A stretch of 64,000 nucleotides of DNA from an uncultured Chloroflexia bacterium (GTDB lineage Bacteria; Chloroflexota; Limnocylindria; QHBO01). Location of the stretch: positions 32,990 through 96,989 of the forward strand of contig CAWBBG010000015.1 in assembly GCA_963787025.1 (NCBI GenBank), written 5' to 3'. Of this stretch, positions 7,532 through 36,947 are shown one piece after another. The notes under the pieces were generated by a model. The model was not told where the DNA came from and did not search any database. It saw only the letters and a program-made list of their open reading frames with translations. A program made the translations under genes and the position numbers. Numbering within the stretch: the stretch's first letter is position 1; every line of letters begins with the position of its first letter.

Positions 7532-7538
7532 TCCCCCG

Positions 7539-8170: not shown

Positions 8171-8193
8171 GGTGCAATGATAGCAGACGATGC

Positions 8194-8210
8194 ATCACCG
8201 TACTGGTGAT
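8194..8210. promoter_or_regulatory. inverted repeat ATCACC-N5-GGTGAT upstream of vapB (candidate operator)
   Basis: Read directly. Lies 24 nt upstream of the vapB ATG. Confidence 0.35.
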
Positions 8211-8224
8211 CTGGCAGACCATAT

Positions 8225-8396
8225 CGCTGTGCGAGCGCTGTGCAACAATGCCTCGTCTGGTTTTCCGCTCGGTTTGAGCGTGAAGCGCGCGCCCGTAGCT
8301 CAGCGGACAGAGCGGATGGCTTCGGACCAGAAACCCGATTGCGGTGTGCCTCTCCTCGTGGGACGCGGAGCATTTCGGGCCGAGTTATCCGCTGTG
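8225..8396 (+). repeat. att-like repeat copy C (tRNA 5' half 8289-8329, arm 8330-8396)
   Basis: Near-identical to copy A. Confidence 0.9.
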
Positions 8397-8441
8397 TCTG
8401 CCACCTGTAGGAGCCTCCCGCGCGCGGGCCCGCCAAGCGCT

Positions 8442-9503: not shown

Positions 9504-9549
9504 GTGCTTCGGTACGATGACCTCACAAGAAACCCACCGTACCGAATTC
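9456..9549. promoter_or_regulatory. array of four GTACCGAA/TTCGGTAC motif copies at the 5' end of, and upstream of, Fic-2
   Basis: TTCGGTAC 9456-9463, CGTACCGAATTC 9486-9497, TTCGGTACG 9508-9516, CGTACCGAATTC 9538-9549. The central spacer contains GCACGTGC. Confidence 0.35.
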
Positions 9550-9596
9550 CTTCCCGCTGGCCGAACTGTGAGCTAGATCTGACCCCCAGACCATCC

Positions 9597-9768
9597 CGCT
9601 GTCCGAGCGCTGTGGCAGAATGGCTCGCGTGGTCTTCCGCTCGCTTTGAGCGTGAAGCGCGCGCCCGTAGCTCAGCGGACAGAGCGGGTGGCTTCGGACC
9701 AGAAACCCCGCCGCGGTGTGCCTCTCCTCGTGGGACGTCGACCATTTCGGACTGAGTTATCCGTTGTC
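9597..9768 (+). repeat. att-like repeat copy D (tRNA 5' half 9661-9701 with the A-to-G variant, arm 9702-9768)
   Basis: More diverged leader (GGTCTTCCGCTCGCTTTGAGCGTGAA). The tRNA half reads GAGCGGGTGG. Confidence 0.85.
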
Positions 9769-10264
9769 AACTGGATCCGGCCTACGCCGTCTTTGCGGGG
9801 ACCACCATCGCGTTCGCGGGCGCCCCCGGCCTTGACTCCACGTCTGGCTGGGCCGGTTCACCGGAGGCGACAAAGCCGGAATGTCAGTTCGCCTCCGAGG
9901 CCGACCATCGCTCGTGTCTGTGCCACGCCGCAGTCGCCGAAACCACGGTGAAGTTCCAGCCCGCCGTGGCGCGGCAGCAGGGCGCGAGCTGCGATACGCC
10001 GCGATGGTGCGGCGTAGAGGGCGAACTCTGGTGCGTCGAGCCGCGCCGCTTTCGGTCGGCTCCGGGTTGGCATCGGTGAGGCGGCAGAGCGAAGCTGAAC
10101 CCGTTGCCGGAACCGCCGCGCTCTCACCTCCGGCGAAAGAGGACATTCGGCTCTTGCGGCGTGCGCGAGCACGTCGTACACCGGTGCCCAGACCTTCGGG
10201 AGAAGCCACAGCGGCCCCAGGCCAAAGGCACTGAATCCGCCAGGAAGGCGGGGAGGGGGGGATC

Positions 10265-11581: not shown

Positions 11582-11652
11582 TGATCGCCTCTGGAGTTTC
11601 GAGAATGCCGCGTGAGTCCCTGCCTGGCGCGGGCCGAAAGGAATCCAGCGGA

Positions 11653-12102
11653 ATGATGACCCTACGACAGCTACGCATCGCCGCATGTGCGACGCTGATC
11701 GCCACCAACCTCGCTGCATGTAGCACTGCGTCACCCACCCCGCAGCCTGCCCCTGCCCGGTCCCCCGCGCCACTCCCGTCCGGCGCCACTGCTCTGACCC
11801 TGCCCACCGCGGCGCCGGAGGCCGTCATTCCGGTGCACTGGGCCTGCCCGGGGAACACGGTTCAGCCCTCAAAGGTCGTCCGCCACGGAGAGGCCGTGGT
11901 CTTCATCCTCCAGACCACCGGCCAACCCATCGACCTCGTGTGGCCGCGCGGCTTCTCCGCGCGACTTCTGAACGACAGGGCCGAGGTGGTGGCTCCGGAC
12001 GGAACGGTCGTGCTCCGGGAGGGAGACGTCTTCTCCGACATCATCAGTGGCGTGCCGGACATCTGCGAGGTGAAGGGCGTGGGCTACCCGCCAGCGTCGT
12101 AG
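11653..12102 (+). CDS. lipoprotein (lipobox LAAC), paralogue of the 15478-15918 lipoprotein
   Basis: MMTLRQLRIAACATLIATNLAAC. Shared motif LVWPRGFSA..VVAPDGTVVLREGDVF, compared with LVIWPAGSDYA..VLLPGGQVISEGDPL in the paralogue. Confidence 0.6.
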   Translation: MMTLRQLRIAACATLIATNLAACSTASPTPQPAPARSPAPLPSGATALTLPTAAPEAVIPVHWACPGNTVQPSKVVRHGEAVVFILQTTGQPIDLVWPRGFSARLLNDRAEVVAPDGTVVLREGDVFSDIISGVPDICEVKGVGYPPAS

Positions 12103-12459
12103 CGGGGCCCTGGCCGATGCCGGATACCCGCCGACCAAACATGCCAGGGTGGCGGGCCTGGCAGGTGATGGAGAGCAAAGCCCGCACCCAAATTCCACCA
12201 CGTCGCGTGAGGAGCGGAGAACCTGTTAGCGGTCGGCCTCGAGTAGCAGCAGCGAAAACGCGATTCCGCCGCTGAAGCCCGAAGGCGCGTCGTCGAACGT
12301 CGGGTCCTCGCGACGCTAGCTCCTCCTCCGCGTCAGCCTGACGTGCACCAAGACGTACACACTTTCCATTGCTTTTTGCATCCGTGGCGGCGTAGCGTCT
12401 ACACATGCCCTGGACCTCTCGTAAACCAACCGCAAACGCCGCAGCCCACCTGAGAGACC

Positions 12460-12996
12460 TCACTGCCCTGGCTCGGCCAGAATGCCCTGGTTGGGCCCAC
12501 GGCTGACTGCCCTGTCACATGAGGCGAGCGGTCCCTCGCAGGCGGCCAGGATGCGGCGCAGCTCGTCATCGGTCAGGATCGGTGGCGCGTGCTCGGGCAC
12601 CTTCGGCTTGTGCATGCGGGCCATGGGGTTGTCGCCCAGCTCAGCCTCGTCGACCAGCCACACAAAGAACGGGCGGATCCCCGAGCGATTGGCCGCGGTG
12701 GCCCGCGTCCAGTGCGCCAGCTGGTCCTCCATGAACGATTCGAGGTGTTCGCGGCGAATGGCGGCCACATCGGTCGGCATGCCACGCGCCTCGAGGAATT
12801 CAGCCAGCCTGCCGAGCGAGGCGAGATAGGTGCGCTGGGTGGCGAGTGAGAGGTTCTCGGCGCGCAGATGCCGCGCGAAGCTCGCCACGTTGGCGCCGAG
12901 GTCGCCGCGGGGTACCATGACCGGACTGGAGGGGGCTGACTGCATCCTGAGACGGCTCTGACGGGTTTCCGAAGACGCGTCGAATTTTCCGCTCAT
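12460..12996 (-). pseudogene. truncated tyrosine integrase (N-terminal SAM-like domain only)
   Basis: The first ~155 aa are identical to the integrase at 23863-24858, up to ILAACEGP. The sequence then becomes unrelated and stops. No catalytic R..HxxR..Y region. Confidence 0.85.
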
Positions 12997-13091
12997 AGCG
13001 CTGTAGTCAATGCCGAATCTGGTTTTCCGCTCTCTTTGAGCGTGAAACGCGCGCCCGTAGCTCAGCGGACAGAGCGGGTGGCTTCGGACCA
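12533..13091 (+). repeat. 559-bp direct repeat, copy 1 (partner 24395-24953), one mismatch (13078 G vs 24940 A)
   Basis: Base-by-base comparison of the two stretches. Identical sub-ORFs appear in the track (12573..12785 and 24435..24647). Confidence 0.9.
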
Positions 13092-13158
13092 GAAACCCGA
13101 CTGCGGTGTGCTCGCCCTCGTGAAGCGGCGACCATTTCGCGCCGAGTTATCCGCTGTC
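12999..13158 (+). repeat. att-like repeat copy E (tRNA 5' half 13051-13091 with the G variant, arm 13092-13158)
   Basis: Leader identical to that of the intact tRNA copy. Arm GAAACCCGACTGCGGTGTGCTCGCC..CCATTTCGCGCCGAGTTATCCGCTGTC. Confidence 0.9.
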
Positions 13159-13282
13159 CCGTCAGCCAGCCCAGGGTGCCAAGGTACGGCAAGGGCTCGG
13201 CTCGCAAGTACCGCCCGAGAACTCCGCGGCTGCCATTTATGACCACTTCCCCGACTTCCCTCGCCCGCCCCTGATTACGGAG

Positions 13283-13453
13283 ATGAAAGGGCCGGTGCGA
13301 GTTGTGGCATTCTCTGGACCGCGAGACGGTGTGCCCCTCCTGGTCGCTCCCGGCGCCACTGCACCTCCCATGGTGAACGTGGTCTGTGTTGTTGATCCGA
13401 ACGGGGAGGAGTGGTACTTCACAGACGTCCCGCTCGATTCTTACCGACCATAG
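13283..13453 (+). CDS. small hypothetical protein (56 aa)
   Basis: ATG preceded by GGAG. MKGPVRVVAFSGPRDGVPLLVAPG..VVCVVDPNGEEWYFTDVPL. Not in the track because it is shorter than 60 aa. Confidence 0.3.
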   Translation: MKGPVRVVAFSGPRDGVPLLVAPGATAPPMVNVVCVVDPNGEEWYFTDVPLDSYRP

Positions 13454-14032
13454 CTACGGCACCATCCCAGAGATATCGACTCCGGTGAAGACGTAGGCCT
13501 CGCCGGAAACCGGAGCCCCCAGCCAGACGCAGAGATCCCGCTCCTGGCCGTTGGCCGGCATGATTGTGGACGGCGGGTGGAATCCGAGCTGAGGCTGGAT
13601 CGGCCCCTGCCATGTGTCTTGGAACACAACCACGAACGTTGGCTGACCAGCGTCCGGAAGACTGAGCCGCGCATTCGGAAAGTGCGCGGCGAAGCCAACG
13701 CCGGAAGACATTGAGAATGCAGCCAGGACGGGTTGAGTATCGCCGTAGCATTCGCTGAAGCGAGGGTCGGCAGAGTCGATTGGGTACCCAGCGCTCCCTC
13801 CGTGCGGCTGCCCCGGTCCGAGAAGTCCCAGAAGAGAATCTCGCCCAACCGCTAAGGCCATGATCAATATGGCCACCGTCACAAACGCCGTGACAGCGAA
13901 CCTTCTCCTCCGCGTACGCTCCCGATCCGGCAAATTGGCCGCAAACTGCCGAAGTGATTCGAGGGCGGCATCGTCTGGTTGGTCGACATCGTGCAGTACG
14001 TGCTCGACAAGATCCTCAAATCGCTCTGTCAT
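13454..14032 (-). CDS. putative anti-sigma factor (single TM, extracytoplasmic C-terminal domain)
   Basis: ATGA overlap with the ECF sigma gene. Central TM FAVTAFVTVAILIMALAV. Confidence 0.55.
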   Translation of the reverse strand: MTERFEDLVEHVLHDVDQPDDAALESLRQFAANLPDRERTRRRRFAVTAFVTVAILIMALAVGRDSLLGLLGPGQPHGGSAGYPIDSADPRFSECYGDTQPVLAAFSMSSGVGFAAHFPNARLSLPDAGQPTFVVVFQDTWQGPIQPQLGFHPPSTIMPANGQERDLCVWLGAPVSGEAYVFTGVDISGMVP

Positions 14033-14565
14033 CTCCGCTCCTCTGCGTCGTAGGCTGCCCTCAGCCGCTGCATTGCGCTCGAGAGTCGTGACTTGACGGT
14101 TCCTTCAGGTATGGACAGCAGATGCCCCGACGCCGCCTGGGTAAGCCCGAGGTAGTAGCGAGCAACGATGACGGCTCGGTCCTTAGTGCTCAGGGCAGAG
14201 AGAGCTCTCCGTAGAGTGCTGTGGGCTACGATTCTGTCGAGATCGACATCGGCCATGTGTATCCAAGCGTCCTCGATTGGTGCCCTCGCTCGTTTTCCCC
14301 TCGTGGCCTTCACTGCGGCCCGAGACACATGGCGAAAGAACCACGCTCGGAAGGCATCCGGCTCGCGGAGCTTTGGCAGGTCCCGCCAAGTGGACAACAG
14401 AGCATCCTGGACTGCATCCGCTGGATCGCATCGGCCAGCAGAAATGAGTCGCGCGATTGACCAGGCCTGAGCGAGGTGAGGCTCGACAAGGTCGGCAAAG
14501 GCACCGCCGTCGCCCAAGATTGAACGCCCCACCAGCGATGGCTGGTCCGACACGATGTTCTCCAC
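14029..14565 (-). CDS. ECF (sigma-70 family, group 4) RNA polymerase sigma factor
   Basis: Region 2-like DAVQDALLSTWRDLPKLREPDAFRAWFF. Region 4 HTH LSTKDRAVIVARYYLGLTQAASGHLLSIPEGTVKSRL. Many non-GC third positions. Confidence 0.8.
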   Translation of the reverse strand: MENIVSDQPSLVGRSILGDGGAFADLVEPHLAQAWSIARLISAGRCDPADAVQDALLSTWRDLPKLREPDAFRAWFFRHVSRAAVKATRGKRARAPIEDAWIHMADVDLDRIVAHSTLRRALSALSTKDRAVIVARYYLGLTQAASGHLLSIPEGTVKSRLSSAMQRLRAAYDAEERR

Positions 14566-14785
14566 GTACTTAGGTTCCTAGCAAGCGCACTTTCGTTCGG
14601 AATCCAATCGGCGTCCAGCGTCTCCGGTGCTGCCCGTGTCGCCTCAGACCAGGGATGTCCGTGTGTAATGGCCGGCTCTGAGCCCATCGAGGGTAAAGGC
14701 GAACTGCCTGCCGGCCGCCGGCCAACGCTTGATCGCCCCGGTCGACGCCGCTGCGCCGGCACCGGAGACCGAGCCGGTCGAGCCC

Positions 14786-14922
14786 GACGAGCAGCGAGCC
14801 GCGGTGGTCAACACCACCATCGAGGAGCTGGCCCGGGAGGGGGCCCGACGCATGCTGGAGCGCGCCCTGGCGGTCGAGGTCGACGAGTTCCTGGGCGGTC
14901 GCCGATACGAGCACCGCCTCTT
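14786..14922 (+). pseudogene. IS256-family transposase N-terminal fragment (remnant)
   Basis: DEQRAAVVNTTIEELAREGARRMLERALAVEVDEFLGGRRYE matches residues of the 17585-18805 transposase. The homology is lost after about 14922. Confidence 0.7.
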
Positions 14923-15477
14923 GGATGCTCCCGCGCCCACGATCAGCAACCGCACGCGTGGCTCAAGCGTGGTGGTTGTCGCCACCGTCGTGGACATCGG
15001 CTCAGCGCGCTCGGCGGTATGGCAGATTGCTTCACATTCCTTGTGGACGGCGCGCCCAAGCTGATCGTGTTCTTCCTGGGTCCCAGCCGAGCGGAGAGCG
15101 GTGCCGATGAGCCAGAGTGGAGCGGTCCAGACACCACTCGACGGTTCGCTGTCGATTCCGGCCTTCTCAACAGCGGTGACAGCAGCCACCAACTGAGAAC
15201 CAGGGCCGCCGTCCAAACCGCGCGACTGGACGCTTGGCGACACTGTCCCGCTTCCTAGGCAAACGCTGCCCATCGGCGAGTTGGGGTCCGAAACGCAGCT
15301 CGCCGACGATATGGCTGCGATCCGTCGACCGTGGCTGCGGCCATCTGACCGGCATCCATCGTCACGATCGCCTCAGCGCGAAGGCGACAGTCGTCGCCGA
15401 AGGGCCTGCAGCCAAACCACCGAAGTCAGGCGAGCACTGCTGTGCCCAACAGTCGGGATCGATGGAGACCCCGGACC

Positions 15478-15918
15478 TCAGGAACCTCGGTCGGCCGTGT
15501 CGATGACGATCACCTCAGAGGCGTTAGGCGCGCAACCGCGGATCGCATAGGCCAACGAGCTGTCCCGGTTGGCGAGCAGAGGTTCCGTCGGCGTTAACGC
15601 TCCGGTACCGACCAGCGGGTCTCCCTCGGAGATTACCTGCCCGCCGGGCAGCAGAACACCCTGCGGCCTGTCGCCCAGGTCCGCGTAGTCCGAGCCGGCG
15701 GGCCAGATGACCAGATAGGTCTCGCCATCGAGCGCGATATTCAGGCACCCGAAATCCGAGACCTCTAGCACGCCGCTGATCTCTCGGCGATCTCCAGGAT
15801 ACGTCTCTCCAGCGTGCTGCCTGGGCAGAGGCATGCCGCCCTCACCGATCCAGCATCCACTCAGGAGCAGGGCGAGCCCAGAGGCCACTATCGTGCGGCT
15901 CACGGTCAAGAACCTCAA
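15478..15918 (-). CDS. lipoprotein (lipobox LLSGC), paralogue of 11653-12102
   Basis: MRFLTVSRTIVASGLALLLSGC, plus the WP.G...EGD motif shared with the unit-4 lipoprotein. Confidence 0.65.
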   Translation of the reverse strand: MRFLTVSRTIVASGLALLLSGCWIGEGGMPLPRQHAGETYPGDRREISGVLEVSDFGCLNIALDGETYLVIWPAGSDYADLGDRPQGVLLPGGQVISEGDPLVGTGALTPTEPLLANRDSSLAYAIRGCAPNASEVIVIDTADRGS

Positions 15919-15952
15919 CCTTCGGCCCTAATGCTCGCGGGTCGCTCCGCCC

Positions 15953-16738
15953 TCAAGCTAGCCGTCGCCGGGACACAGCCAGCGCGCCCATGAATACCGC
16001 GACCGCGGCCGCACCAAGCACCGCCGGCAGAGGAAAGCCTCCGTGCGGAGACACCTCGGGCGTTGGGCCAGCCCCAGCGAGTCCGGCGTCACGATCGCCC
16101 ATCGCCCAAGCCGCTGCGAGTCGACTCAGCCGCGTCCTGAGCGCCGAGGTGTATTCCCCGACGGGAACCGGACGATCAGGAAGCTCAAGTGCCGCGCGAA
16201 ACGCCTCGTCCGCAACAGGCATCGCAACCGAGACACCTCTCGCCGAGCCCAGCACAATCGTGGCGTCCTCCGGGATGTAGACGATCCTGGCATCGGGATC
16301 GCCGACCTCGTTCAACGCATCTGACAGCAGCTGCGCCGGTATCTGGTTCAGGGCGACTGCCTCCGGTCGATTCACAGTGGAGGGCCACTGGACCGTCACG
16401 ACGATCTTGGGGGCGGAATCGATGCCAAGGATCACCCACCACAGGTCAGTGGTGACCGTGGCCATGTCGACGGTTCGACCATCTTCCTCCTGTCGGAATT
16501 GGGAGTCGAGTGCATGCAGAGGCAGGATGGTCACGGGTCGCAGCAACGGGAGGTCTTCAGCAGTGACCCCAAGGCGGTCGCCCTCGGCGGGATCCGCCTG
16601 AAGCAATGCGTCAAATCCTTGGGCGTAGGCCACGGCGACCTTGCCGATCTCATTCGTTCGATCGTCGCCGCCGGCACCCATAAGAAACGGCAGCACCAGC
16701 AGCGCCACAACGGCTGGCGTCGAGAATCGCGCACTCAT
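15953..16738 (-). CDS. hypothetical membrane-anchored protein (N- and C-terminal TM segments)
   Basis: Start at the internal ATG 16738, giving an ATGA overlap with the upstream peptidase gene stop. TM segments VVALLVLPFLMGA and AVLGAAAVAVFMGALAV. Confidence 0.5.
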   Translation of the reverse strand: MSARFSTPAVVALLVLPFLMGAGGDDRTNEIGKVAVAYAQGFDALLQADPAEGDRLGVTAEDLPLLRPVTILPLHALDSQFRQEEDGRTVDMATVTTDLWWVILGIDSAPKIVVTVQWPSTVNRPEAVALNQIPAQLLSDALNEVGDPDARIVYIPEDATIVLGSARGVSVAMPVADEAFRAALELPDRPVPVGEYTSALRTRLSRLAAAWAMGDRDAGLAGAGPTPEVSPHGGFPLPAVLGAAAVAVFMGALAVSRRRLA

Positions 16739-17349
16739 TGGTGAATCTTCCAGAGGGTGTTGGTCCACGTGAACGTTGAGTTGTTCTTGAAGTAGCTCCA
16801 CGAGTACCACACGTACGTTGCCGGGTTGGGCCAGGGATCCATCACCGAGAACTGGTCGGTGCCGCCATCGTGCCAGTAGTAGCCGCGGCCGACGAAGATA
16901 TGGCCACCTCCAGAACTCCAGCCGACCCGAATCAAGAATGGTCGACGCTGAGTCCCGATCTCACCGGTCGTCTGTGACCAACTCAGAGACCACCACTCGT
17001 GGGTCGAATCGATGGCCTTCTTGGCGTGGAGGTAGTTTCCGACGTCGGCCAGCGCCGACGGTTGGTTGCAGTTGCCAGAGCTCGGGTACTGGCAGCAGTC
17101 GGATCGGTTGAACCGATCGTTGGCCTGCTGACATTGCGTGTATGTGATGCCGAACAGGTACTGCACGACAGACTGCGTCGAAGCTGCCCAGCACCACTGG
17201 TTCTGGGTCTGGTGGACCAGCGGGACCGACAGCGAAACGCCGCCCGACGCGGCGTTTGCGGGCAGCGCCGTCACCTGCGACATGGACGCAGCGAGCAGGA
17301 ACGCCGCCGCCGCCGCCGCGCTCCTTCGCAGCCAAGAACGCTCGACCAT
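16735..17349 (-). CDS. secreted papain-like cysteine peptidase (C39/C70-like fold)
   Basis: Signal-like AAAAAFLLAASMSQVTALPANA. Q-x5-C arrangement HQTQNQWCWAAS and downstream GGGHIFVGRGYYW (candidate catalytic His). Confidence 0.6.
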   Translation of the reverse strand: MVERSWLRRSAAAAAAFLLAASMSQVTALPANAASGGVSLSVPLVHQTQNQWCWAASTQSVVQYLFGITYTQCQQANDRFNRSDCCQYPSSGNCNQPSALADVGNYLHAKKAIDSTHEWWSLSWSQTTGEIGTQRRPFLIRVGWSSGGGHIFVGRGYYWHDGGTDQFSVMDPWPNPATYVWYSWSYFKNNSTFTWTNTLWKIHQ

Positions 17350-17559
17350 TGAAGATCTCCCCCGCACCTGACGGCCTGCGGCTGGCATGAGCCGGTCAAG
17401 TAGGCGTCGTCGACACGGTCGCTTCAGGGACTGATTGGATCAAGAGCCATTCGGCCCATTCGCCCTGGCCTTCGTCGGCGGTCTCGAGCAACGGGCCCTC
17501 GATCGCCCAGTTAGTCACGGCGCGCCCGCTGGTCGGCGCTTCCAGACCGGACAACGCGC

Positions 17560-18900
17560 AGTGCGTGAACAACGGCTTGCCACATCAGGCCGCCGACACC
17601 TGTGCCGACTGCGGCACGTACACGCCGTCGACGAAGCGGGCGCCGCCGAGCAGCAGGGTCATGACCGTCAGCCCGCCGTTCAAGGGTCGCCAGGAGTGCT
17701 CGAGGCGCTGGGCGACCTTGAACACCAGGTAGAGGGCGTTCTCGCGGCGGCGCATGCGCTTGGCGACGTCGGTCCGGAGGCGCACCCCGGCGAACACCGA
17801 CTCGATCGGGTTGCTGGTGCGCAGGTGGATCCAGTGCTCGGCCGGAAAGTCGTAGAAGGTCACGAAGTCGTCCCAGTCGCGCAGCACCGTCTCGGCCGCG
17901 CTCGTCTGGCCGTGGGCCTCCAGCCAGCGCACGAGGGCGTCGCGACGCAGCTCGCACTCGGCGCGGCTCTCCGAGCTCCACGCCTCACGCAGCCGGCGCC
18001 GGGTCTCGGGCCACAGTCGTTTTGGGACCTTATCCAGCACGTTGAGAACGCGATGGTTCCAGCAGCGCTGGTGGCGGGTGGTCGGGAAGACTTCGTCGAG
18101 GGCGGCCCACAGCCCGAGCGCTCCGTCGCCGCAGGCGAGCAGCGGTGCGGCCAGGCCGCGATCCCGGAGGTCGCGCAGCACGCCGGCCCAACTGGCGGCG
18201 CTCTCGCGGTAGCCGAGCGGGCGCACGCGCCAGGCGGCGTATTCAGTCGCCCACTCGTCCTTGAGGCGCAGGATGGTCGAGCCTGACAGCGGTGCAGACT
18301 CGCCGAGCAGCTCGCGGAAGGCGGGCTCGAAGTCGCCGGAACTCAACCCCTCGAGGTAGAGCCGCGCGAAGAGTCGTTGGGTCTCGGCCGAGAGCATGCG
18401 GCGCCGCGGCAGGATCGAGCTGTGGAACGACTCCCCGTCCTCGGGCAGGTCGCGCACCCGCGGTGCGCGCACCTCAACCGGCCAAGTCCCGATCGCCACC
18501 GCTCGCGGGCGACCGTACCCATTGCGGTAGCCGTGCTCGGCGAGCAGGCGGCGCTGGTAGCGAGATCGGCCGAGGAACTCGTCGACCTCGGCGGCGAGTG
18601 CCCGTTCGAGCATGCGCCGTGCGCCCTCCCGGGCCAGCTCCTCGATGGTCGTGTTGACGACCGCGGCTGGCTGCTCGTCTGGATGCGTCGGCTCGGGCTC
18701 CTCGGACGGCTTTGATGTAGTCGCCGGCGCGATCGCGTGCTCGCCCATCTGCTGGTCCGGCGGCTGAGACGGCGCGAACGAGGTCAGGGCATGGTACGTT
18801 TCCATCGCGGCGTGCTCCTTCTGTAGCCTGAAGACCTTCGGAGGGTACGCCGCTTTCTCATGCCCGCGAGAGGACGAGGAGCGCAGCGGCGTTTACACAC
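17560..18900 (-). mobile_element. IS256-family insertion sequence (ends not confidently defined)
   Basis: The transposase gene fills the element. Only weak terminal similarity was seen around the GTGTGTAA/GTGCGTGAA motifs. Confidence 0.5.
17585..18805 (-). CDS. IS256-family (mutator-type) transposase with an apparent in-frame internal deletion of the first catalytic Asp region
   Basis: Family motifs ELAREGARRML, YRNGY, CGDGALGLWAAL, HQRCWNHRVLNVL, HLRTSNPIES. The segment normally between ..EYAAW.. and ..YRESxxSW.. is missing (YAAWRVRPLGYRESAASW). Confidence 0.8.
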   Translation of the reverse strand: METYHALTSFAPSQPPDQQMGEHAIAPATTSKPSEEPEPTHPDEQPAAVVNTTIEELAREGARRMLERALAAEVDEFLGRSRYQRRLLAEHGYRNGYGRPRAVAIGTWPVEVRAPRVRDLPEDGESFHSSILPRRRMLSAETQRLFARLYLEGLSSGDFEPAFRELLGESAPLSGSTILRLKDEWATEYAAWRVRPLGYRESAASWAGVLRDLRDRGLAAPLLACGDGALGLWAALDEVFPTTRHQRCWNHRVLNVLDKVPKRLWPETRRRLREAWSSESRAECELRRDALVRWLEAHGQTSAAETVLRDWDDFVTFYDFPAEHWIHLRTSNPIESVFAGVRLRTDVAKRMRRRENALYLVFKVAQRLEHSWRPLNGGLTVMTLLLGGARFVDGVYVPQSAQVSAA

Positions 18901-18933
18901 GCCGTGACGTTAGCTCTCCTCCTGCGCCACTTC

Positions 18934-18955
18934 AGACGTACACCTAGACGTACAC
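18934..18955 (+). promoter_or_regulatory. tandem direct repeat AGACGTACAC-CT-AGACGTACAC upstream of the 18999 ORF (candidate operator)
   Basis: Read directly. A homologous block lies at about 12338-12365 in unit 4. Confidence 0.35.
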
Positions 18956-18998
18956 ACATTCCCTTGTTTCGCCCCGGCACCCTCGATACGTTGTTCGC

Positions 18999-19319
18999 AT
19001 GCCGATACGCGTTACTCCGGCCCGTCTTCGCGATGAGCTGACCGAACTCTGTGTGCGTGCGTCCGCTGGCGAGCAGCTTGTCGCGGCGGGCGTCCACCAG
19101 GCGCCGGTCCTCATCCGCCCGGTAAGGCGGCGAGACCAGGGTGCGCGAACGAGCCTCACCGTCTTCCGGCGGCAGCTGCATCGCATCCTGCGCCAGGCTG
19201 CCCAGGAGCCGGTCATCGTCACTGGGGGCGGTGATCCTGTGCTGTGGCTGGGTCCGACGGTCGTCCCGGCTGACTTCGGTACGGGGTCGGGGGCTGGGCA
19301 CCGTCGCAGGAGGCGGTGA
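18999..19319 (+). CDS. hypothetical protein, possibly a Phd/YefM-like or Xis-like small DNA-binding protein
   Basis: MPIRVTPARLRDELTELCVRASAGEQLV..APVLIRP loosely fits the Phd/YefM N-terminal pattern. A competing antisense ORF exists (18858..19361). Confidence 0.3.
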   Translation: MPIRVTPARLRDELTELCVRASAGEQLVAAGVHQAPVLIRPVRRRDQGARTSLTVFRRQLHRILRQAAQEPVIVTGGGDPVLWLGPTVVPADFGTGSGAGHRRRRR

Positions 19320-19603
19320 TGGGACGGCGCGGGAGCGGCTCCAGCCGATCGGAGCGGGCACTGCGAGGCCGCATGGGTGCCCACCTACTGCATGCCACCC
19401 ACGATTCCCGGCGCTTGACCGAGAAGGCTCGCGCTTCGTTCATGGCGAGCTTCGAGCGGCAGGTCGATCCGGATGGCAGCTTGCCGGCTGACGAACGTCG
19501 GCGGCGGGCGGCCCATGCCCGGGCGGCCTACTTCGCCAGGCTCGCACGGCGCAGCGTGCTGGCGCGTGGGCGGCGCAAACGTCGTCGTCGCGGCAGGGGA
19601 TGA
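19316..19603 (+). CDS. hypothetical basic protein (Arg-rich C-terminus)
   Basis: Start/stop overlaps with both neighbours (GTGATG at 19316, ATGA at 19600). ..RRRRAAHARAAYFARLARRSVLARGRRKRRRRG. Confidence 0.4.
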   Translation: MMGRRGSGSSRSERALRGRMGAHLLHATHDSRRLTEKARASFMASFERQVDPDGSLPADERRRRAAHARAAYFARLARRSVLARGRRKRRRRGRG

Positions 19604-20559
19604 GCGTCACAGCTCGCCATGGCGGTTCCCGCCGTCCGAGGGCGATGGGTCCGCCAGGCATGCTGGCCTGGACGGCGTTGCCCGTCCGTGATCAGCGGCT
19701 GATCACCTGGCTGTGGGCCGGCGACGTGGTCAATGCCGAGCTGGCCGCCGTCCTCGCCTACGGCAACCTGCGCGTCGCCCAGCGCCGACTGGCGCGCCTG
19801 GTCGAGTACGGCATCCTGCGCGGCTTCTGGGCGGCGAACCGCCAGCGTCCCCGCGGCCGCTACGCCTACGCCCTGACCAAGGCGGCCCGCAAGGACGTCG
19901 AGTACCTGCTCTGGGAGCACCACCCTCCGGAGCCAGTAACCGGCCAGCTCCAGGCGCCCTCGCCGGTCATTCATCAGCTGGCCACCCATGATCTGCTGGC
20001 CGCCTTCCTGCGCGCCTCACCGCTGACCGAGGAGATCGGGCTGGCGGGCTGGGTGCCCGAACACGCCGCGGCCCTGCGCTACGACGGTGCGCTGCGGCCG
20101 GATGCCATCGCCATCGTCCGCCGCGGCGAGGTCGGCACCCTGCTGATCATCGAGCGCGACCTGGGCAGCGAACGCCACGAGATCCTGCTCGATAAGCTGC
20201 GCCGCTACAACTTCATCCACGTCCATCCGGCCGGCAGCAACCTGGGCTTCATCCTCGACAGCCGGCGCCGCGCCGTCGCGTTGCTCGTCTCGCTGCGCGC
20301 CGCTGCCCAGCGCAGCCCTGCGTGGTACGGGGAGTCCCACATCCCGTGCTGGGTGGCGGTCGGCGCTGACCTGCTGGACGACCCGTTCGGCACCCCCTGG
20401 CGCTCGCCGGATGGAGAAGAGGCGAGCGTGCTCACCATGCCGACCATCGCCGTGCCCGGCCCGCTGCCGGTCCTTTCGGTTCCGCCCTTGCTCGATGACG
20501 GCGCCGAGGGCGCCTTCGACGATCGGGCCCTGAGCGCCGCTGGCTGGCGCGGCCGCTAG
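19600..20559 (+). CDS. replication-relaxation family protein
   Basis: N-terminal wHTH-like LRVAQRRLARLVEYGILRGF. HQLATHDLLAAF..LRPDAIAIV..LIIERDLGSE is typical of the family. Confidence 0.65.
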   Translation: MSVTARHGGSRRPRAMGPPGMLAWTALPVRDQRLITWLWAGDVVNAELAAVLAYGNLRVAQRRLARLVEYGILRGFWAANRQRPRGRYAYALTKAARKDVEYLLWEHHPPEPVTGQLQAPSPVIHQLATHDLLAAFLRASPLTEEIGLAGWVPEHAAALRYDGALRPDAIAIVRRGEVGTLLIIERDLGSERHEILLDKLRRYNFIHVHPAGSNLGFILDSRRRAVALLVSLRAAAQRSPAWYGESHIPCWVAVGADLLDDPFGTPWRSPDGEEASVLTMPTIAVPGPLPVLSVPPLLDDGAEGAFDDRALSAAGWRGR

Positions 20560-20903
20560 CGAGTCCATCCTCGTCCTTACCCTGAACCCACTGGGAAGCC
20601 TGCGCCCGCTCGCACGCCTAGAAGCCCTGTCGCGCTCCGGAACGTGTCCCCGTCATGTCCGTGTGCGAGAGCCGCGACCGTGGCTCGCACAGGGGCGCGT
20701 CAATCTGGCGTGCTCAACCGCCCGCTTGCTGAACCCCGACATCTCTATAGATATGCGCCTGTGCGGTCAAGGAGGGCGCGTGAAAGCGCATGGCTTCCGC
20801 GCAGGCGGCCAGGATGTCGGCTGCCCTGTGCGTACCCGAGCGGACCATGCAGGCCGAAGCCAGCAGCCGGACGAAGGCGGTGTCACCTTGGTCCTCGCCC
20901 TAG

Positions 20904-21937
20904 TTGTCGTTCCCGCTCACGTTGTTGACAAGTTGAGAGCCCTCGTGCTCGGTATGGGGTTGTCGAAGCTCCATTCCGACGGAGGGCTCTCATGCTCCAT
21001 CGTACGGCCAAGCTGACGCCGTTCGGCCGACGGCTCCTGGTCGATCGGGTCCTGCTCGAGGGCTGGCCGGCCGCGACCGCCGCCGAGCAGCTCGGGGTCA
21101 GCCGGGCGACCGCGTACAAGTGGCTGCGGCGGTACCGAGCCGAGGGCGACGCCGGTCTCGAGGACCGCTCCGCGCGCCCGCTCCACCGGCCTCGGGCGTT
21201 GCCCGAGCGCGAGGTCCGCCGGATCCTGGTCGCCCGGAGACGGCTGCGGGTCGGGCCCCACCGTCTCGGTCCGCTCCTCGGCCATTCCCGCTCGACGGTG
21301 TACGGCGTCCTCCGCCGCCACGGCGTGAGCCGCCTGGCGCATGCCGATCGGCTGACCGGCGTCCCGGTCCGCTACGTCCGGGAGCGTCCCGGCGAGCTGA
21401 TCCACGTCGACGTCAAGCGGCTCGGGCGGGTGCCGCCCGGCGGCGGCCACCGGATGCTCGGCGAGGACGCCCGCAAGCACGTCGGGGCGGGATACGACTA
21501 CCTCCACGTCGCGATCGACGACGCGACCCGGGTGGCGTACGTCGCGGTGCGGCCGGATGAGCAGGCCGCGAGCACGGTCAGCTTCATCGAGGAGGCCGTC
21601 GCGTTCTTCGCCGGGCAGGGCGTCCGGGTCGAGCGGGTGATGACCGACAACGCCTGGACGTACACCCACTCAACCCGCCTCGCCGCCCTGTTCGCCGATC
21701 TCGGCATCCGCCATGTCCGGACCCGGCCCCGGCGTCCCCAGACCAACGGCAAGGCCGAGCGCTTCATCGGGACGATCCAGCGGGAGTGGGCGTACGCCCG
21801 CCTGTTCCGCTCGAACGACGAGCGCCTGGCGACCCTGCCCGGCTGGGTCGACGCCTACAATCGCAGGCGTCCCCACGCCGGGCTCGACGGCCGGACGCCG
21901 CTATCGGTCCTCGTCAACAAGGTCGACGAGAACGACA
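20904..21937 (+). mobile_element. IS481-family insertion sequence with imperfect ~30-bp terminal inverted repeats and a 6-bp target duplication CCTAGT
   Basis: Left end TGTCGTTCCCGCTCACGTTGTTGAC. Reverse complement of the right end TGTCGTTCTCGTCGACCTTGTTGAC. CCTAGT at 20898-20903 and at 21938-21943. Confidence 0.85.
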
Positions 21938-21942
21938 CCTAG
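20992..21942 (+). CDS. IS481-family DDE transposase
   Basis: HTH SRATAYKWLRRY. DDE region IHVDVK..MTDNAW..PQTNGKAERF. The stop codon TAG lies in the duplicated target. Confidence 0.9.
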   Translation: MLHRTAKLTPFGRRLLVDRVLLEGWPAATAAEQLGVSRATAYKWLRRYRAEGDAGLEDRSARPLHRPRALPEREVRRILVARRRLRVGPHRLGPLLGHSRSTVYGVLRRHGVSRLAHADRLTGVPVRYVRERPGELIHVDVKRLGRVPPGGGHRMLGEDARKHVGAGYDYLHVAIDDATRVAYVAVRPDEQAASTVSFIEEAVAFFAGQGVRVERVMTDNAWTYTHSTRLAALFADLGIRHVRTRPRRPQTNGKAERFIGTIQREWAYARLFRSNDERLATLPGWVDAYNRRRPHAGLDGRTPLSVLVNKVDENDT

Positions 21943-22412
21943 TGCCGGAGCAGGCCGGCACCTGCCGCCCTAGCTTTTCGACGAGGCGCAGCACCGACGA
22001 CGGCTCGTCGGGGATGGGCGGCAGGCGTCTGGGCGACGTCCGGAACTCGCGGATCTCGTCCTCCTTACCAGGCAGCGGATTCTCTGTTGGTGCTCCGGCG
22101 CGTTGTCGCCAGGGGGCTATCCGGACCTTGCCGTGGTGGGCCTGCTTGCGAGCCCCTTGTCGCCGCCGGCGTCAACGAGGCGCCGCGATCGTCATGTGCC
22201 AAGTGTGGCCTCGTGATCGAGGTGCGCGAACGGGCCCCGCCATCTTGCACGCGGCCCGACAGGCTCTCCTCGTAGAGGCGGGCGTCCTTCGTTCCCCGAG
22301 TGTTTATTACCCCGGTCGAGAGCATGCATGACGCGGGGGTCGTCCCCGACGCCCACCAGCCAACTGCAAGTCTCATCGGCGTGGATGAAATCCATTCGGC
22401 CAGCCGATGAAG

Positions 22413-22437
22413 GGCAGCCCGCCGACGGCGGGCTGCC
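22413..22437 (-). terminator. strong GC hairpin GGCAGCCCGCC-GAC-GGCGGGCTGCC about 40 nt downstream of the 22480 stop
   Basis: 11-bp perfect stem read directly. Weak T-rich tail only. Confidence 0.5.
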
Positions 22438-22479
22438 TTCTGCCGGGCATGAGTGGTGCGACGCCTTGCCGAGCGGGGC

Positions 22480-22812
22480 CTACGCGGTCGATGACCTCCG
22501 TCGCATGTTTGCCGCTGTGCTCGCGAGACCTGCCACGAGCAGGACTGCGGCACCGACCAGCCATCCGCCGAGATACGGCTCGCTACACGTGCTACACGCG
22601 GGCGGATGGATGGCGAGGAGAATGAGGCTGAGGCCGCCTATCCCCGTCAAGAGGCCCGTTCCAATGACCACGCGGTGGCGCGATACGAGCACGCCCACCA
22701 CGACTACGCCCGCCACTGCCACTCCGAGAACTCCAACTAAGAAGAAGAGCAAAGCAGCCGACGCTCCGAGGAGCGCTCCCAGTGTCCAGAATCCTGAGCG
22801 CGAGATAGTCAT
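22480..22812 (-). CDS. small hydrophobic membrane protein (about 4 TM)
   Basis: ATG 22812 overlaps the TGA of the upstream gene (ATGA). GFWTLGALLGASAALLFFLVGVLGVAVAGVVVVGVLV.. Confidence 0.55.
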   Translation of the reverse strand: MTISRSGFWTLGALLGASAALLFFLVGVLGVAVAGVVVVGVLVSRHRVVIGTGLLTGIGGLSLILLAIHPPACSTCSEPYLGGWLVGAAVLLVAGLASTAANMRRRSSTA

Positions 22813-23579
22813 GGCGACCATGTTCCATACGTCCTGTGTTCCCAGACGGGAGCACAACTGTCCACCGTGTTCGAGTCATAGCTCAGGGTCACGGTCCCAT
22901 TGCCCCGCCCGTATACGCGGTTGTAGTAATAGTACGTCCACGTCGTGGTCGGCCAGCAGAACAGGCTGTTCTTGAAGGTCGCAGTTGTGTTGCCGTAGTA
23001 GTAGGTACAGCTGAGCGAGTGGTAGATGTTGTGCGCCTCAAGCGACCAGCCCGATAGGCCGAAGTACTCAACTAGCTGCTGAGTCGAGCCGCTCAGCGCA
23101 CAGCTGCCGTCCCATTCCCAGGTAATGCGGGTGGTGTCGCCGTTCAGGGTCTTTCCAATAACGTCTTCCCACCAGTTCTTCTGATAGTACCGACTTGTAT
23201 GCGAGATCGAGTCCGGAGCGGCTGACCCGAGAGCGTCGAGGCTAAAGGTTGCGAGAGTAAGCTCTTGGGGGGAGGTGTCTGGTTGAGACGGCACGCCCTC
23301 CTCAACGAGCTTCTTGCAGTGGAGTTGGTCTATCGCAACGTCGCGAACCTCCCACCCGTCAGAAGATGGCCCGAGAGACACGTCCGTTGCATGGAAATGA
23401 CATCCATTCGGAATGCGCTCGCCGAGGACCCAGGAAAGCCGGCTGTTCTCCAGCGGCGCACGCGACCCTTGGAACCACACCAATGAATCGGCTGCACCGT
23501 TCACAGGTGCAGCCTGCGCTATGGACACCCCTCCGAGAAGTAGTGCGAACGCGAAGATACGCAGTCTCCGAATCATCAT
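22809..23579 (-). CDS. secreted hypothetical protein, Tyr/Trp/Cys-rich, no recognised domain
   Basis: GGGAGGGAG RBS before ATGATG. Signal MMIRRLRIFAFALLLGGVSIAQA. C-terminal part CTYYYGNTTATFKNSLFCWPTTTWTYYYYNRVYG. Codon usage less GC-biased than the flanks. Confidence 0.65.
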   Translation of the reverse strand: MMIRRLRIFAFALLLGGVSIAQAAPVNGAADSLVWFQGSRAPLENSRLSWVLGERIPNGCHFHATDVSLGPSSDGWEVRDVAIDQLHCKKLVEEGVPSQPDTSPQELTLATFSLDALGSAAPDSISHTSRYYQKNWWEDVIGKTLNGDTTRITWEWDGSCALSGSTQQLVEYFGLSGWSLEAHNIYHSLSCTYYYGNTTATFKNSLFCWPTTTWTYYYYNRVYGRGNGTVTLSYDSNTVDSCAPVWEHRTYGTWSP

Positions 23580-23862
23580 GCGACTCCCTCCCTGTTGCCC
23601 GCACCCGAGTTGTCCGGCGCACCCAGCTGTCAGTGACTCGGCTCCCTGCCGCGAGGCAGATGCCTCGGTACGGGCATCTACCGGTAACCCTGAGATGGCA
23701 AGAGCCAGACTGTCAAGAGTCGTTTGACCTCGCGGGCGAGACTGACCCGGCGCAGGAGCTGCCGGGCAGATCGACCACCGTCTGTCAGGGGCGGCTGCGC
23801 GCCGCCGAAGGCCAGCCGTGCGGGTAACGATCATCCGAAGGCCGATTGCGCCCGACTTCGGG

Positions 23863-24858
23863 CTACAGTCGGTCGCCGATGCCGAGCCGCCTGGCGGCCG
23901 CGATGGCGCGCTCCCGCTCGGCGCTCTTCGCGTAGCGCGACAGCATCTCGCGGCTGCGCCAGCCCGCGAGGGCCATGACCTCGCCCTCCTGCATGCCGCT
24001 CGATAGCGCCTCGTGGGCATAGGTGTGGCGGAACAGGTGGGCGTGGAGCTGTGGGACCCTCGCGGCGGCACCCCGCCGCCGGAGGACCTGGGCGATCCCG
24101 GAGTCGGTCATCCGGCCCTTCTCGCCCAGCCACAGCCAGGGCGCTTCAGCGCGCGGGTGGCGAGCGCGGAGGCGCAGGTAGCGGTCGAGCGCGCGCACGG
24201 CCTTGGCGCCGAGGTGGACGATCCGCTCGCGCCGACCCTTGCCCATGACCCGCATCAGCCCGGCGTCGAGGTCGAGGTCATTGGTCGCGGGGTCCGCTGG
24301 CGTCCAGCGCAGGTTGGCGACCTCCGACAGGCGGGCGCCGGTGGCGAGGAAGGTGCGCACCAATGCGGCATCCCGGCGATCGGCGAAGGTCGGCCCCTCG
24401 CAGGCGGCCAGGATGCGGCGCAGCTCGTCATCGGTCAGGATCGGTGGCGCGTGCTCGGGCACCTTCGGCTTGTGCATGCGGGCCATGGGGTTGTCGCCCA
24501 GCTCAGCCTCGTCGACCAGCCACACAAAGAACGGGCGGATCCCCGAGCGATTGGCCGCGGTGGCCCGCGTCCAGTGCGCCAGCTGGTCCTCCATGAACGA
24601 TTCGAGGTGTTCGCGGCGAATGGCGGCCACATCGGTCGGCATGCCACGCGCCTCGAGGAATTCAGCCAGCCTGCCGAGCGAGGCGAGATAGGTGCGCTGG
24701 GTGGCGAGTGAGAGGTTCTCGGCGCGCAGATGCCGCGCGAAGCTCGCCACGTTGGCGCCGAGGTCGCCGCGGGGTACCATGACCGGACTGGAGGGGGCTG
24801 ACTGCATCCTGAGACGGCTCTGACGGGTTTCCGAAGACGCGTCGAATTTTCCGCTCAT
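23863..24858 (-). CDS. tyrosine recombinase/integrase (XerC/D-like phage integrase family)
   Basis: Start at ATG 24858 (MSGKFDASS). The track ORF extends spuriously across the tRNA. Catalytic-type motifs ARLSEV, HLFRHTYAH, GWRSREMLSRY. Confidence 0.9.
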   Translation of the reverse strand: MSGKFDASSETRQSRLRMQSAPSSPVMVPRGDLGANVASFARHLRAENLSLATQRTYLASLGRLAEFLEARGMPTDVAAIRREHLESFMEDQLAHWTRATAANRSGIRPFFVWLVDEAELGDNPMARMHKPKVPEHAPPILTDDELRRILAACEGPTFADRRDAALVRTFLATGARLSEVANLRWTPADPATNDLDLDAGLMRVMGKGRRERIVHLGAKAVRALDRYLRLRARHPRAEAPWLWLGEKGRMTDSGIAQVLRRRGAAARVPQLHAHLFRHTYAHEALSSGMQEGEVMALAGWRSREMLSRYAKSAERERAIAAARRLGIGDRL

Positions 24859-24953
24859 AGCGCTGTAGTCAATGCCGAATCTGGTTTTCCGCTCTCTTTG
24901 AGCGTGAAACGCGCGCCCGTAGCTCAGCGGACAGAGCGGATGGCTTCGGACCA
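24395..24953 (+). repeat. 559-bp direct repeat, copy 2 (partner 12533-13091)
   Basis: See copy 1. Confidence 0.9.
24861..24912 (+). promoter_or_regulatory. conserved leader upstream of tRNA-Arg (repeat copy F, presumed to contain the tRNA promoter)
   Basis: CGCTGTAGTCAATGCCGAATCTGGTTTTCCGCTCTCTTTGAGCGTGAAACGC is conserved in all six copies from TGGT(T/C)TTCCGCTC onward. No canonical -10/-35 hexamers were recognised. Confidence 0.35.
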
Positions 24954-24988
24954 TCAGGTCGCGGGTTCGATTCCTGCCGGGCGCGCCA
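24913..24988 (+). tRNA. tRNA-Arg (anticodon UCG), CCA encoded
   Basis: Cloverleaf read by eye: acceptor GCGCCCG/CGGGCGC; D arm GCTC-AGCGGACA-GAGC; anticodon arm GATGG-CTTCGGA-CCATC; variable AGGTC; T arm GCGGG-TTCGATT-CCTGC; discriminator G; CCA. Confidence 0.95.
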
Positions 24989-34899: not shown

Positions 34900-36947
34900 C
34901 TACGGCTGGCGGCGAGTGGGCAGGTGGTACGGGACGTCGGCCACGATCGTGTTGTGGCGCGCAAAGAGCCGCAGCTTCAGCCGCAGGGCGGTCTGGTTGT
35001 GCAGGAAGTTCTCCCACCAATGGCGAGGGACGAATTCGGAGAGGACCACCAGGATCGGTCGGGTGGGGTCCTGCTTCTGAGAGTGCGTCCATGTAGGCGA
35101 GCAGGGGACCGATGAGCGCCCGGTACGGCGACTCGACCACGACGAGCTCGGTCGCCCCCGCCCACGCTGGCCAGCGCTCGCGGAGGGCGGCGGCGGTCGC
35201 GGGATCGTTCGTGACGTGCACGGCGGTCGGATGGTCCGAGATGGAGTTTGCGAAGGCGATTGCCTGGCGTGCCGGGCGGTCGAGGCGGGCGATGGGCACG
35301 ATCACGATCGGCTCGGTCGCCACCTCGCGGCCATCCGGGATTCGATCGAGCTCGAGGGCATCGCCGATCCCGCGGTAGTGGTGGCGGATGCCGAGCATGA
35401 TCGTGATCAGGATCGGGGCCATCACGATGACGAGCCAGGCTCCCGAGAGGAACTTCGTGGAAGCCACGATCAGGGCGATCACGCCGGTCGTGGCGGCGCC
35501 CAGGCCGTTGATCAGCAGGCCACGGCGCCAGCCGGGGTCGCGGCGCCGCCACCATCGGACCACCATCCCGCTCTGGGACAGGGTGAAGGCCACGAAGACC
35601 CCGAGCGTGTAGAGCGGAATGAGCGCGGTGACGCTGGCCTGGAACACGATGAGCAGCAGGGTCGCCAGGCCCGAGAGGGCAACGATGCCGGTGGTGAACG
35701 CGAGGCGCTCCCCTCGGAAGCCGAACTGGCGCGGCATGAACCCGTCGCGGGCGAGGAACGAGGCGAGGCGCGGGAAGTCCGCGAAGCTCGTGTTCGCGGC
35801 CAGGGCCAGGATCAGGGTCGTCGCCACCTGGAGCACGACGAGGTACGGACCGTCTCCCATCACCTGGCGGGTGATGAGCGAGAGGACCGTGCTGTGCTCC
35901 GATGGATCCGGCACGACGTGGATATAGCTGCCCAGGAAGCTGATCCCCACGAAGAGGCTGCCGAAGATGATCGCGGCCCAGGTGAGCGTGGTTCGCGCGT
36001 TCCGCCACTCCGGCGACTTGAAGGCCGGCACGCCGTCGGAGATAGCTTCGACACCGGTGAGGGCCGCCGCGCCGGAGCTGAACGCGCGAAGGACGAGGAA
36101 GAGCGTGAGGACCGACGTCGCCTCCTCCGCCTTGAGCCAGCCCGCCGGGGCCACGAACGTCCCCAGGTCGCCCAGGACGAAGGCGCGGAAGAGTCCCCAT
36201 CCGATGAGGCCCACGATGGTGGCGATGTACAGGTACGTGGGCGCCATGAAGATGCGTGCCGGACTCGCGGATCCCGCGCAGGTTGCCGAGCATGAGGAGC
36301 GCGACGATGCCGATGGCGATCAGGACCCGATCCGGAAACAGCGAGGGCGCGATGGAGGTGATGGCCGCGACCCCTGCGGAGACCGACACCGCCACCGTCA
36401 GGACGTAGTCGATGAGGAGCGCCGAGGCGGCCACCAGTCCCGAGACGGCCCCCAGGTTGTCGCTCGCCACGATGTAGCTCGAGGCGCCCTCGGGATAGGC
36501 CTTGATCGTCTGCCGGTAGCTGGTTGCGACGATGGCCAGGATGGCCGCGATGACCAGCGTGATGGGCATGACCAGGCTGAAGCTGGTGATCCCGGCCAGC
36601 ACCAGGATCCGCATCATCTCCTCGGTGGCGTATGCGGAGGAGCTGATGTTGTCGGAGCTGAAGATGGCGAGCGCCTTGAGCTTGGTCAGTCGCTCGGTGT
36701 GCTCGCGGTGCGTCGAGATCGGTCGGCCGATGAGTGCGGTCCGCAGGCCGCGCGCGATCCGGCTCGGCAGGCCGGCACGCTGGAGGAAGGTCCGCTCGGT
36801 CGCGATCAGGCCGCCGTCGCCGCGCTCGAACTCCTCTTCGAAGGGCCGAACGATGCGGACGTAGGTATCGCCGGGGCGTGCGCCGCGACGCCGCTCGCGG
36901 ACCTCCAGGAGCGGGTCGATCGGTCGCGGGGGATCGGTGTCAGTCAC
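34900..36947 (-). pseudogene. APC-superfamily permease (about 680 aa type with cytoplasmic C-terminal domain), two apparent frameshifts (about 36255 and 35074)
   Basis: N-terminal part in ORF 34977..36947, up to LRGIRESG. Core in ORF 33302..36247 (MAPTYLYIATIVG..). The C-terminal end ILVVLSEFVPRHWWENFLHNQTALRLKLRLF..YHLPTRRQP* is in a third frame. Confidence 0.7.

Follow-up and report, generated by a model that had tools for sequence, protein, structure and literature searches.

How can a tRNA gene serve as an integration site when the incoming element supplies its 5′ half, together with the region upstream of it, instead of its 3′ half? In bacteria, "with very few exceptions", a recombinant tRNA gene is said to retain the promoter that it had before (PMC8371274). 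The question is raised by a 64,000-nucleotide stretch of an uncultured Chloroflexia bacterium (contig CAWBBG010000015.1; hereafter the window, meaning the whole 64-kb stretch analysed), in which a tRNA-Arg(TCG) gene stands at the right-hand end of an island of 18.9 kb (6022-24912) and five copies of the 5′ part of the gene lie within that island. Here, we argue, with a probability of about 85%, that 6022-24912 consists of integrative elements arrayed in tandem by successive insertions into the anticodon loop of tRNA-Arg(TCG), with the 5′ part of the gene carried on attP.

What is repeated in the island and what is not? The gene at 24913-24988 (+ strand) is the single tRNA gene detected by ARAGORN in the window, and it is also the sole tRNA match (66.9 bits) in an Rfam search of 5000-26000. 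A 37-nt probe from its 5′ part, for which no match is expected by chance, finds copies with zero or one mismatch at 6022, 7424, 8289, 9661, 13051 and 24913, all on the + strand. Of the 3′ part (24950-24988) the window has a single copy. Both the alignments and a self-BLAST search show that identity to the intact gene ends at 24953, that is, at tRNA position 41, in every repeat block. A leader of about 70 nt is common to all six copies, and about 66 nt downstream, here called the P arm (GAAACCCG...GCGGTGTGCC...CATTTCG..GAGTTATCCGCTGT), are common to the five displaced ones. Each internal repeat is ordered leader, 5′ half, P arm, and these repeats of about 180 bp, 85-95% identical to one another, have the structure expected of attP-like junctions between tandem elements. 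The most distal displaced 5′ half with its P arm spans 6022-6134 (+). The others, located by probe, alignments and self-BLAST, span 7424-7533, 8289-8395, 9661-9767 and 13051-13157 (all +); the last of these, with its 5′ half at 13051-13091, is the attP-like junction between the two elements designated E4 and E5. In the intact gene, read as an attR junction, positions 1-41 (24913-24953) are element-borne, and 24954-24988 is the chromosomal 3′ part.

This is the arrangement that the Islander database defines as a tDNA-integrating genomic island: a full tRNA gene, end fragments on the same strand (+) and an integrase gene between them (23863-24807). The five fragments, all upstream of 24913, consist of positions 1-41 with the 3′ part unduplicated, which corresponds to the 5′-fragment ("reversed") class, and the end of the identity block at position 41 corresponds to Islander site A, the anticodon loop. 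The initial annotation of this stretch had claimed that the displaced fragments are 5′ halves with their leaders, that the island lies upstream of the intact gene, that identity is limited at 24953 and that this is compatible with a crossover in the anticodon loop, with the opposite arm exchanged. All four claims hold, the last being supported by the limits of the fragments.

How would such an array be built? In the proposed process, attP would comprise the 5′ part of the tRNA (position 1 to about 41) and some 70-100 nt of upstream sequence, beside the integrase promoter region, and the usual 3′ part would not be carried. By analogy with the known behaviour of tyrosine recombinases, strand exchange would occur at the borders of the 7-nt anticodon loop. 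Integration would place the element upstream of the gene, fusing the leader and 5′ half of the element to the chromosomal 3′ half and pushing the previous 5′ half outward with whatever leader it had. Judging from how tyrosine recombinases act at tRNA anticodon stem-loops, each new element would insert into the regenerated gene, leaving the newest one next to the tRNA, and repetition of this event would produce the five displaced 5′ halves. The tRNA would then be transcribed from element-borne signals. Integrase genes are distributed unevenly along the array: that of the newest element (13051-24912) is intact, that of the next is truncated, and the three distal segments have none.

Could the polarity be conventional and its reversed appearance an artefact, due to a mis-oriented or chimeric contig or to an intact gene at the other end? 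Repeat arrays are indeed hard to assemble. However, only the rightmost copy is a complete tRNA, as the initial annotation had assumed, and reversal of a contig leaves unchanged which half is repeated. In addition, the same layout is found in 59 independent species-level loci of the survey described below and in the related locus L082, so that we regard an artefact of this kind as extremely improbable.

If the 5′ half is brought in by the element, where does the leader of the present gene come from? Two lines of evidence bear on its origin. One is the locus L002, which by blastn and alignment is syntenic with the left flank of the window and in which a single element of 2.6 kb separates the same PCC-domain gene from the tRNA-Arg gene. 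In L002, 26 nt lie between the PCC-domain stop codon and the displaced 5′ fragment, which is preceded by a native, TACAAT-containing leader (GGTACAATCGGCCCCG), and the integrase-proximal leader is quite different (TTTTACGCTCTATTTGAGCGTGAATCGT). The other is a metagenome scan for TACAAT-N9 followed by intact tRNA-Arg(TCG), which yielded nine contigs where a leader of the form CCCG-TACAAT-N9, for example CCCGTACAATGGCCGCCGC, precedes an intact tRNA that matches that of the window exactly or almost so; no integrase was seen near the tRNA in any of the nine. The leader in the window differs from this TACAAT leader found natively on the same tRNA, and a leader of the TACAAT type occurs nowhere in the window. 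At other loci, too, far-end fragments are preceded by boxes of the TAnnnT type (TACAAT, TATAAC, TAGAAT), and the integrase-proximal leaders have the family's own motifs. From the nine contigs and L002 it follows that the leader in the window is element-borne and that the native promoter region has been displaced; integration thus separates the gene from its native -10 region. That the element supplies both the 5′ half and the upstream region, as the initial annotation had it, is confirmed by the same comparison.

What kind of enzyme would carry out these insertions? The open reading frame (ORF) at 23863-24858 (- strand) matches PF00589 (Phage_integrase, 2.1e-25 over residues 141-314) and has a SAM-like N-terminal domain. 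R176, K207, H274, R277, W300 and Y309 are invariant in an alignment of 15 proteins. Its product is thus predicted to be a tyrosine recombinase of the phage integrase family, a two-domain XerC/D-like protein serving E5, the newest element, as its integrase. Among solved structures XerD is the best relative of this protein, and the nearest phage integrases are 32-36% identical to it. A XerC/XerD dimer resolvase was considered and rejected on scores of 149.5 bits for XerC and 136.3 for XerD against NCBIfam equivalog cut-offs of 335 and 329.6, and the protein is Xer-like in fold only. An integron integrase was rejected as well (TIGR02249, 42.5 bits against a cut-off of 265).

The integrase gene adjoins the 5′ end of the tRNA gene and is divergent from it. 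The initial annotation was right in this respect, but it placed the integrase start at 24858, 54 nt from tRNA position 1. All 14 aligned homologues start at a methionine matching residue 18 of the ORF, and the ATG at 24858 falls within what is non-coding leader in the relatives. The start is therefore probably at 24807 (gene 23863-24807, - strand), which makes the gap to tRNA position 1 about 105 nt.

Is the reversed layout peculiar to this locus? The initial annotation had implied that it is rare. A genome scan with a profile built from 15 family members yielded 80 species-level loci, mostly from Chloroflexota (Limnocylindria and others) and Actinomycetota. Four were set aside, in which the integrase lies at or within about 210 nt of a contig end and no tRNA was found; in all 76 informative loci a tRNA lies 48-268 nt from the integrase start. 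The two genes are divergent, as in the window, in 59 of the 76 and co-directional, the conventional layout, in 17, a proportion that may be biased, as the sample consists of the 80 nearest relatives of a reversed query. L082 also shows the layout of the window. Repeat searches identified the far-end fragments of 14 divergent loci as tRNA positions 1 to 36-42 and those of four co-directional loci as positions 28-33 to the 3′ end. These 5′ and 3′ fragments overlap in the anticodon loop, so that one crossover site would serve both polarities. In a tree of 72 integrases built by neighbour joining, orientation is shared within clades and changed at least twice, with the divergent state placed at the root, and the integrase of the window belongs to a tRNA-Arg(TCG) clade whose placed members are all divergent. 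The reversed layout is therefore normal for this integrase family, an outcome that the initial annotation itself had named as an argument against its claim, and the implied rarity does not hold.

In some relatives, islands flank one tRNA gene on both sides. At L079 (406-4246 with 9763-10810) and L020 (4895-4940) a reversed-type element lies 5′ of the gene and 3′-half or 3′-end fragments lie on the other side, and L052 (4367-4408) has the converse arrangement. Both halves of the gene may be element-derived in such two-sided relatives.

Several observations weigh against successive insertion as we have described it. The most distal copy, at 6022, has a leader (about 5957-6021) of the element type, where the native chromosomal one would be expected. 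The flanking genes of the window were found in none of the nine native-leader contigs, no empty site of the same strain was seen, and neither was an excision product. Scans of the leaders of the window and of L001 with the sigma-70 consensus gave no promoter, and none in the direction of the tRNA; reading the leader by eye likewise revealed no convincing promoter toward the tRNA. A repeat array of this kind is, moreover, prone to misassembly if the assembly is a short-read metagenomic one. Finally, duplication instead of integration could account for the growth of part of the array, as is hinted at by a 563-bp repeat and by the leaders of another locus, both taken up below. As for the distal copy, the original attL seems to have been lost from the window. 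The PCC-domain stop codon is separated from the distal fragment by 148 nt in the window (5874-6021), as against 26 nt in the syntenic L002.

How far could duplication go in explaining the array? An alternative to independent integrations is that a single integrated element gave rise to the repeats, chiefly through local duplication or unequal crossing-over. In favour of it, 12529-13091 duplicates 24391-24953 with 99.6% identity over 563 bp, including the integrase N-terminus, the leader and the tRNA 5′ half, and the locus L051 contains two fragments with identical 90-nt leaders. However, the junction repeats are just 85-95% identical mutually, the segments between them carry unrelated genes, the leaders fall into two subtypes in the alignment, the 5′ halves differ at tRNA position 28, and one of the Fic-domain cassettes described below is found in another array context. 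We therefore consider duplication unlikely as the main source of the repeats. At position 28 (24940, 13078 and 9688) the intact gene and the copies at 6022, 7424 and 8289 have A, and those at 9661 and 13051 have G; most native-leader contigs also have G, giving a G-U pair with position 42. This difference fits insertion in series, in which each element would bring its own 5′ half. The 563-bp duplicate itself would be either a recent re-integration of a sister element followed by a deletion or a product of unequal crossing-over. Its start at 24391 explains the left coordinate, 24395, of the region singled out in the initial annotation. The older copy includes the truncated integrase remnant of E4 (12529-12945, - strand), which retains the SAM-like domain only, and ends in a truncated integrase ORF (12460-12996).

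What signals does the element-borne leader contain? The leader, or intergenic region, at 24808-24912 is conserved in the six copies and across the clade and includes a putative integrase promoter and a palindrome. The putative promoter is on the - strand, with TTGACT at 24872-24867. Read by eye, a promoter-like TTGAC(C/T)-N17-TA(T/A)AAC directed toward the integrase, with a palindrome in its spacer, is conserved in clades of either orientation, divergent or co-directional; in the window (24844-24872, -) the spacer is 2 nt shorter and contains the ATG at 24858. The integrase-proximal arm, read in the direction of the integrase, is alike in the two orientation classes, which differ in the tRNA half beyond it. 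The possibility that the ECF (extracytoplasmic function) sigma factor of the element uses a TGAAAC beside the tRNA was dropped, as the spacing is unfit.

The palindrome, CCGCTC-TCTTT-GAGCG at 24889-24904, lies beside the tRNA start. In the element-borne leaders of the window and 59 related loci it ends about 7-9 nt before tRNA position 1, and its sequence varies by clade: CCGCTC/GAGCG in the window, and ACGCTC/GAGCGT, GTGCTC/GAGCAC or TATCTGCT/AGCAGATA elsewhere. Among the element-borne leaders, 42% contain a perfect inverted repeat of 6 bp or more, compared with 3% of shuffled sequences. The palindrome might form a hairpin or bind a dimer. Another motif, GTT(A/T)T(A/C)CGCT(G/C)T, is found at the outer end of the P arm (6115-6128, 7518-7531 and equivalents) and, in the same orientation, at two places in the leader, about -85 and -28; its reverse complement nearly matches tRNA positions 22-31, and its copies may be accessory binding sites of the integrase. 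The idea that the leader holds an inverted copy of the tRNA segment just 5′ of the anticodon loop, covarying with tRNA identity, was set aside: matches to the own tRNA (8.34 of 12) were only slightly better than those across species (7.61). Only the clustering of these matches at about -28 and -81 is suggestive, a hint and not a result. As for RNA structure in the 5′ half and P arm, a fold showed almost no covariation, and we make no claim for it.

What do the elements carry? The newest, E5 (13051-24912; G+C content 0.669), has a cargo region at 13158-23862, in which Pfam searches identify an ECF-type sigma factor (14029-14565, -), a C39-like peptidase (16735-17388, -), an IS256-family transposase (17585-18805, -), a Replic_Relax protein (19600-20559, +) and an IS481-family transposase (20992-21942, +). 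The backbone of integrase, Replic_Relax protein and sigma factor is also present in L081 and L082, two loci from one metagenome whose integrases are 94-95% identical to that of the window. An inverted repeat of 156 bp with 81% identity (14764-14919 and 18546-18701) overlaps the 5′ part of the IS256-family transposase gene and may represent a fragment of a second copy of this insertion sequence within E5.

The distal part of the array (6022-13050; G+C content 0.651) is of a different make. Its innermost segment (9661-13051) contains a 438-aa ORF with no Pfam match, further unassigned ORFs and the truncated integrase. The remaining three have no integrase and carry as their sole genes a Fic-domain gene (segment 6022-7424; gene 6176-7381, -; PF02661, 5e-17), a VapBC pair (segment 7424-8289; genes 7539-8170, -) and a second Fic-domain gene (segment 8289-9661; gene 8442-9503, -; PF02661, 1e-18). 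In the pair, VapC (7539-7955) is a PIN-domain protein (PF01850, 4e-9), and the ORF at 7946-8170 is assigned as a putative ribbon-helix-helix-like VapB from a reading of its sequence.

Are these segments the remains of decayed elements, or something more? A further idea, which is compatible with serial integration and would add to it, is that the array is a cassette platform similar to an integron or to the cis-mobilizable elements (CIMEs) related to integrative and conjugative elements (ICEs), and not a collection of elements in decay; the resident integrase would act in trans on the Fic and VapBC modules, which have no integrase, cutting them out and inserting them again. Complete junction repeats, each about 180 bp long, do enclose just Fic, VapBC and Fic in the three distal segments. 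One of them recurs elsewhere: by blastn, 8232-9769, which includes the Fic-domain gene and both junctions, is present at 95.6% identity in L082 (14910-16448) among other neighbours, and a second, partial copy lies elsewhere in the L082 array (7312-8248). In addition, two 5′ halves enclose a Fic cassette that lacks an integrase in L032 (14991-16684), a locus from a tRNA-Pro clade. However, neither a circular cassette nor an empty junction was seen, and the same facts would be explained by decay through deletion, which addictive toxin genes are expected to survive. The integrase is not of the integron type (42.5 bits against the cut-off of 265), no attC-like hairpins turned up, although no search aimed at attC was made, and the orientation of the genes relative to the integrase is not fixed, the Fic-domain gene of L032 being on the opposite strand. 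We offer the cassette platform as a tentative addition, one that we think is probably mistaken.

Both flanks of the array appear chromosomal. Their genes are of housekeeping types, and their G+C content is 0.70, compared with 0.65-0.67 in the island. The left flank (1-6021) encodes an FtsX/MacB-type permease and the PCC-domain protein (5301-5873, +), identified by Pfam and by blastn synteny with L002, and the right flank (24989-64000) encodes a CBS protein, VIT1 and a phosphoketolase. Within the right flank, the adjacent segments of about 2 kb at 34918-36919 and 36994-38996 are 71.5% and 73.7% identical to one and the same region of L002, which suggests a tandem paralogous gene pair.

How does this locus compare with known systems? 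Judging from its title and from papers that cite it, work by Zhao and Williams in 2002 reportedly described the reversed, 5′-fragment class earlier. The window shares with that work and with the 5′-fragment islands of Islander an island upstream of a regenerated tRNA gene, a displaced 5′ fragment and a tyrosine integrase inside. The "configuration filter" of Islander explicitly allows both 5′ and 3′ fragments, and among the 3919 islands in its Table 1, 3760 have a 3′ and 159 a 5′ tDNA fragment (PMC4383910). The element thus belongs to a known minority class and is not exceptional among catalogued elements, contrary to what the initial annotation had suggested; what differs is that the layout is here the majority state of a large integrase family of Chloroflexota and Actinomycetota and not an isolated exception. 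A 5′-half class has also been described for the archaeal pTN3-like integrases of Thermococcales plasmids and proviruses (PMC6563490, PMC8371274), whose attB corresponds to the 5′ half of a tRNA gene. Expression of the recombinant tRNA is there said to come from the promoter region of the integrase, which is "seldomly encountered in bacteria" (PMC8371274). Those integrases are archaeal, whereas the integrase in the window is bacterial and XerC/D-like, and the two are likened by layout alone.

With conventional anticodon-loop tDNA integrases (Islander sublocation A; classification of Williams, 2002), the window shares a crossover centred on the anticodon stem-loop and conserved attP arms of about 70-100 nt on each side, and the co-directional clades of its own family behave conventionally, with 3′ halves at the far end. 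In the window, by contrast, the tRNA-derived arm of attP is the 5′ half and leader rather than the 3′ half and trailer, and it is for this reason that the native promoter is displaced. ICE/CIME accretion and integron cassette arrays resemble the array in having repeated att-type junctions between modules, some of which lack an integrase; the junctions here differ in being attP-like, about 180 bp long and provided with a tRNA half, and the integrase fails the integron model. What appears to be added is that a sizeable bacterial integrase family uses the reversed polarity as a rule, a statement that we found nowhere in the literature searched, several key papers lying outside that search.

What does the reversed polarity mean for the organism and for the family? 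For the locus, it explains the 18.9-kb island and its repeats and shows that the upstream region of the tRNA gene is foreign. Of the observations made on the side, the Fic and VapBC cassettes that lack an integrase are the more intriguing. We advance a pair of linked proposals as speculation, with the odds against the pair. According to the first, the reversed layout would be the majority state of the family, perhaps the ancestral one, and its elements would routinely take over the promoters of host tRNA genes; according to the second, arrays of integrase-less Fic and toxin-antitoxin cassettes with attP-like junctions containing a tRNA half would be shuffled in trans by the resident integrase, constituting a tRNA-anchored analogue of the integron. 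For the family, about three quarters of the sampled loci run opposite to the rule given in reviews, that the original promoter is kept (PMC8371274). The finding bears on island-finding tools that lean on 3′ fragments, on the annotation of tRNA promoters in Chloroflexota and on the means by which expression of a host tRNA is maintained by a mobile element that has displaced its promoter.

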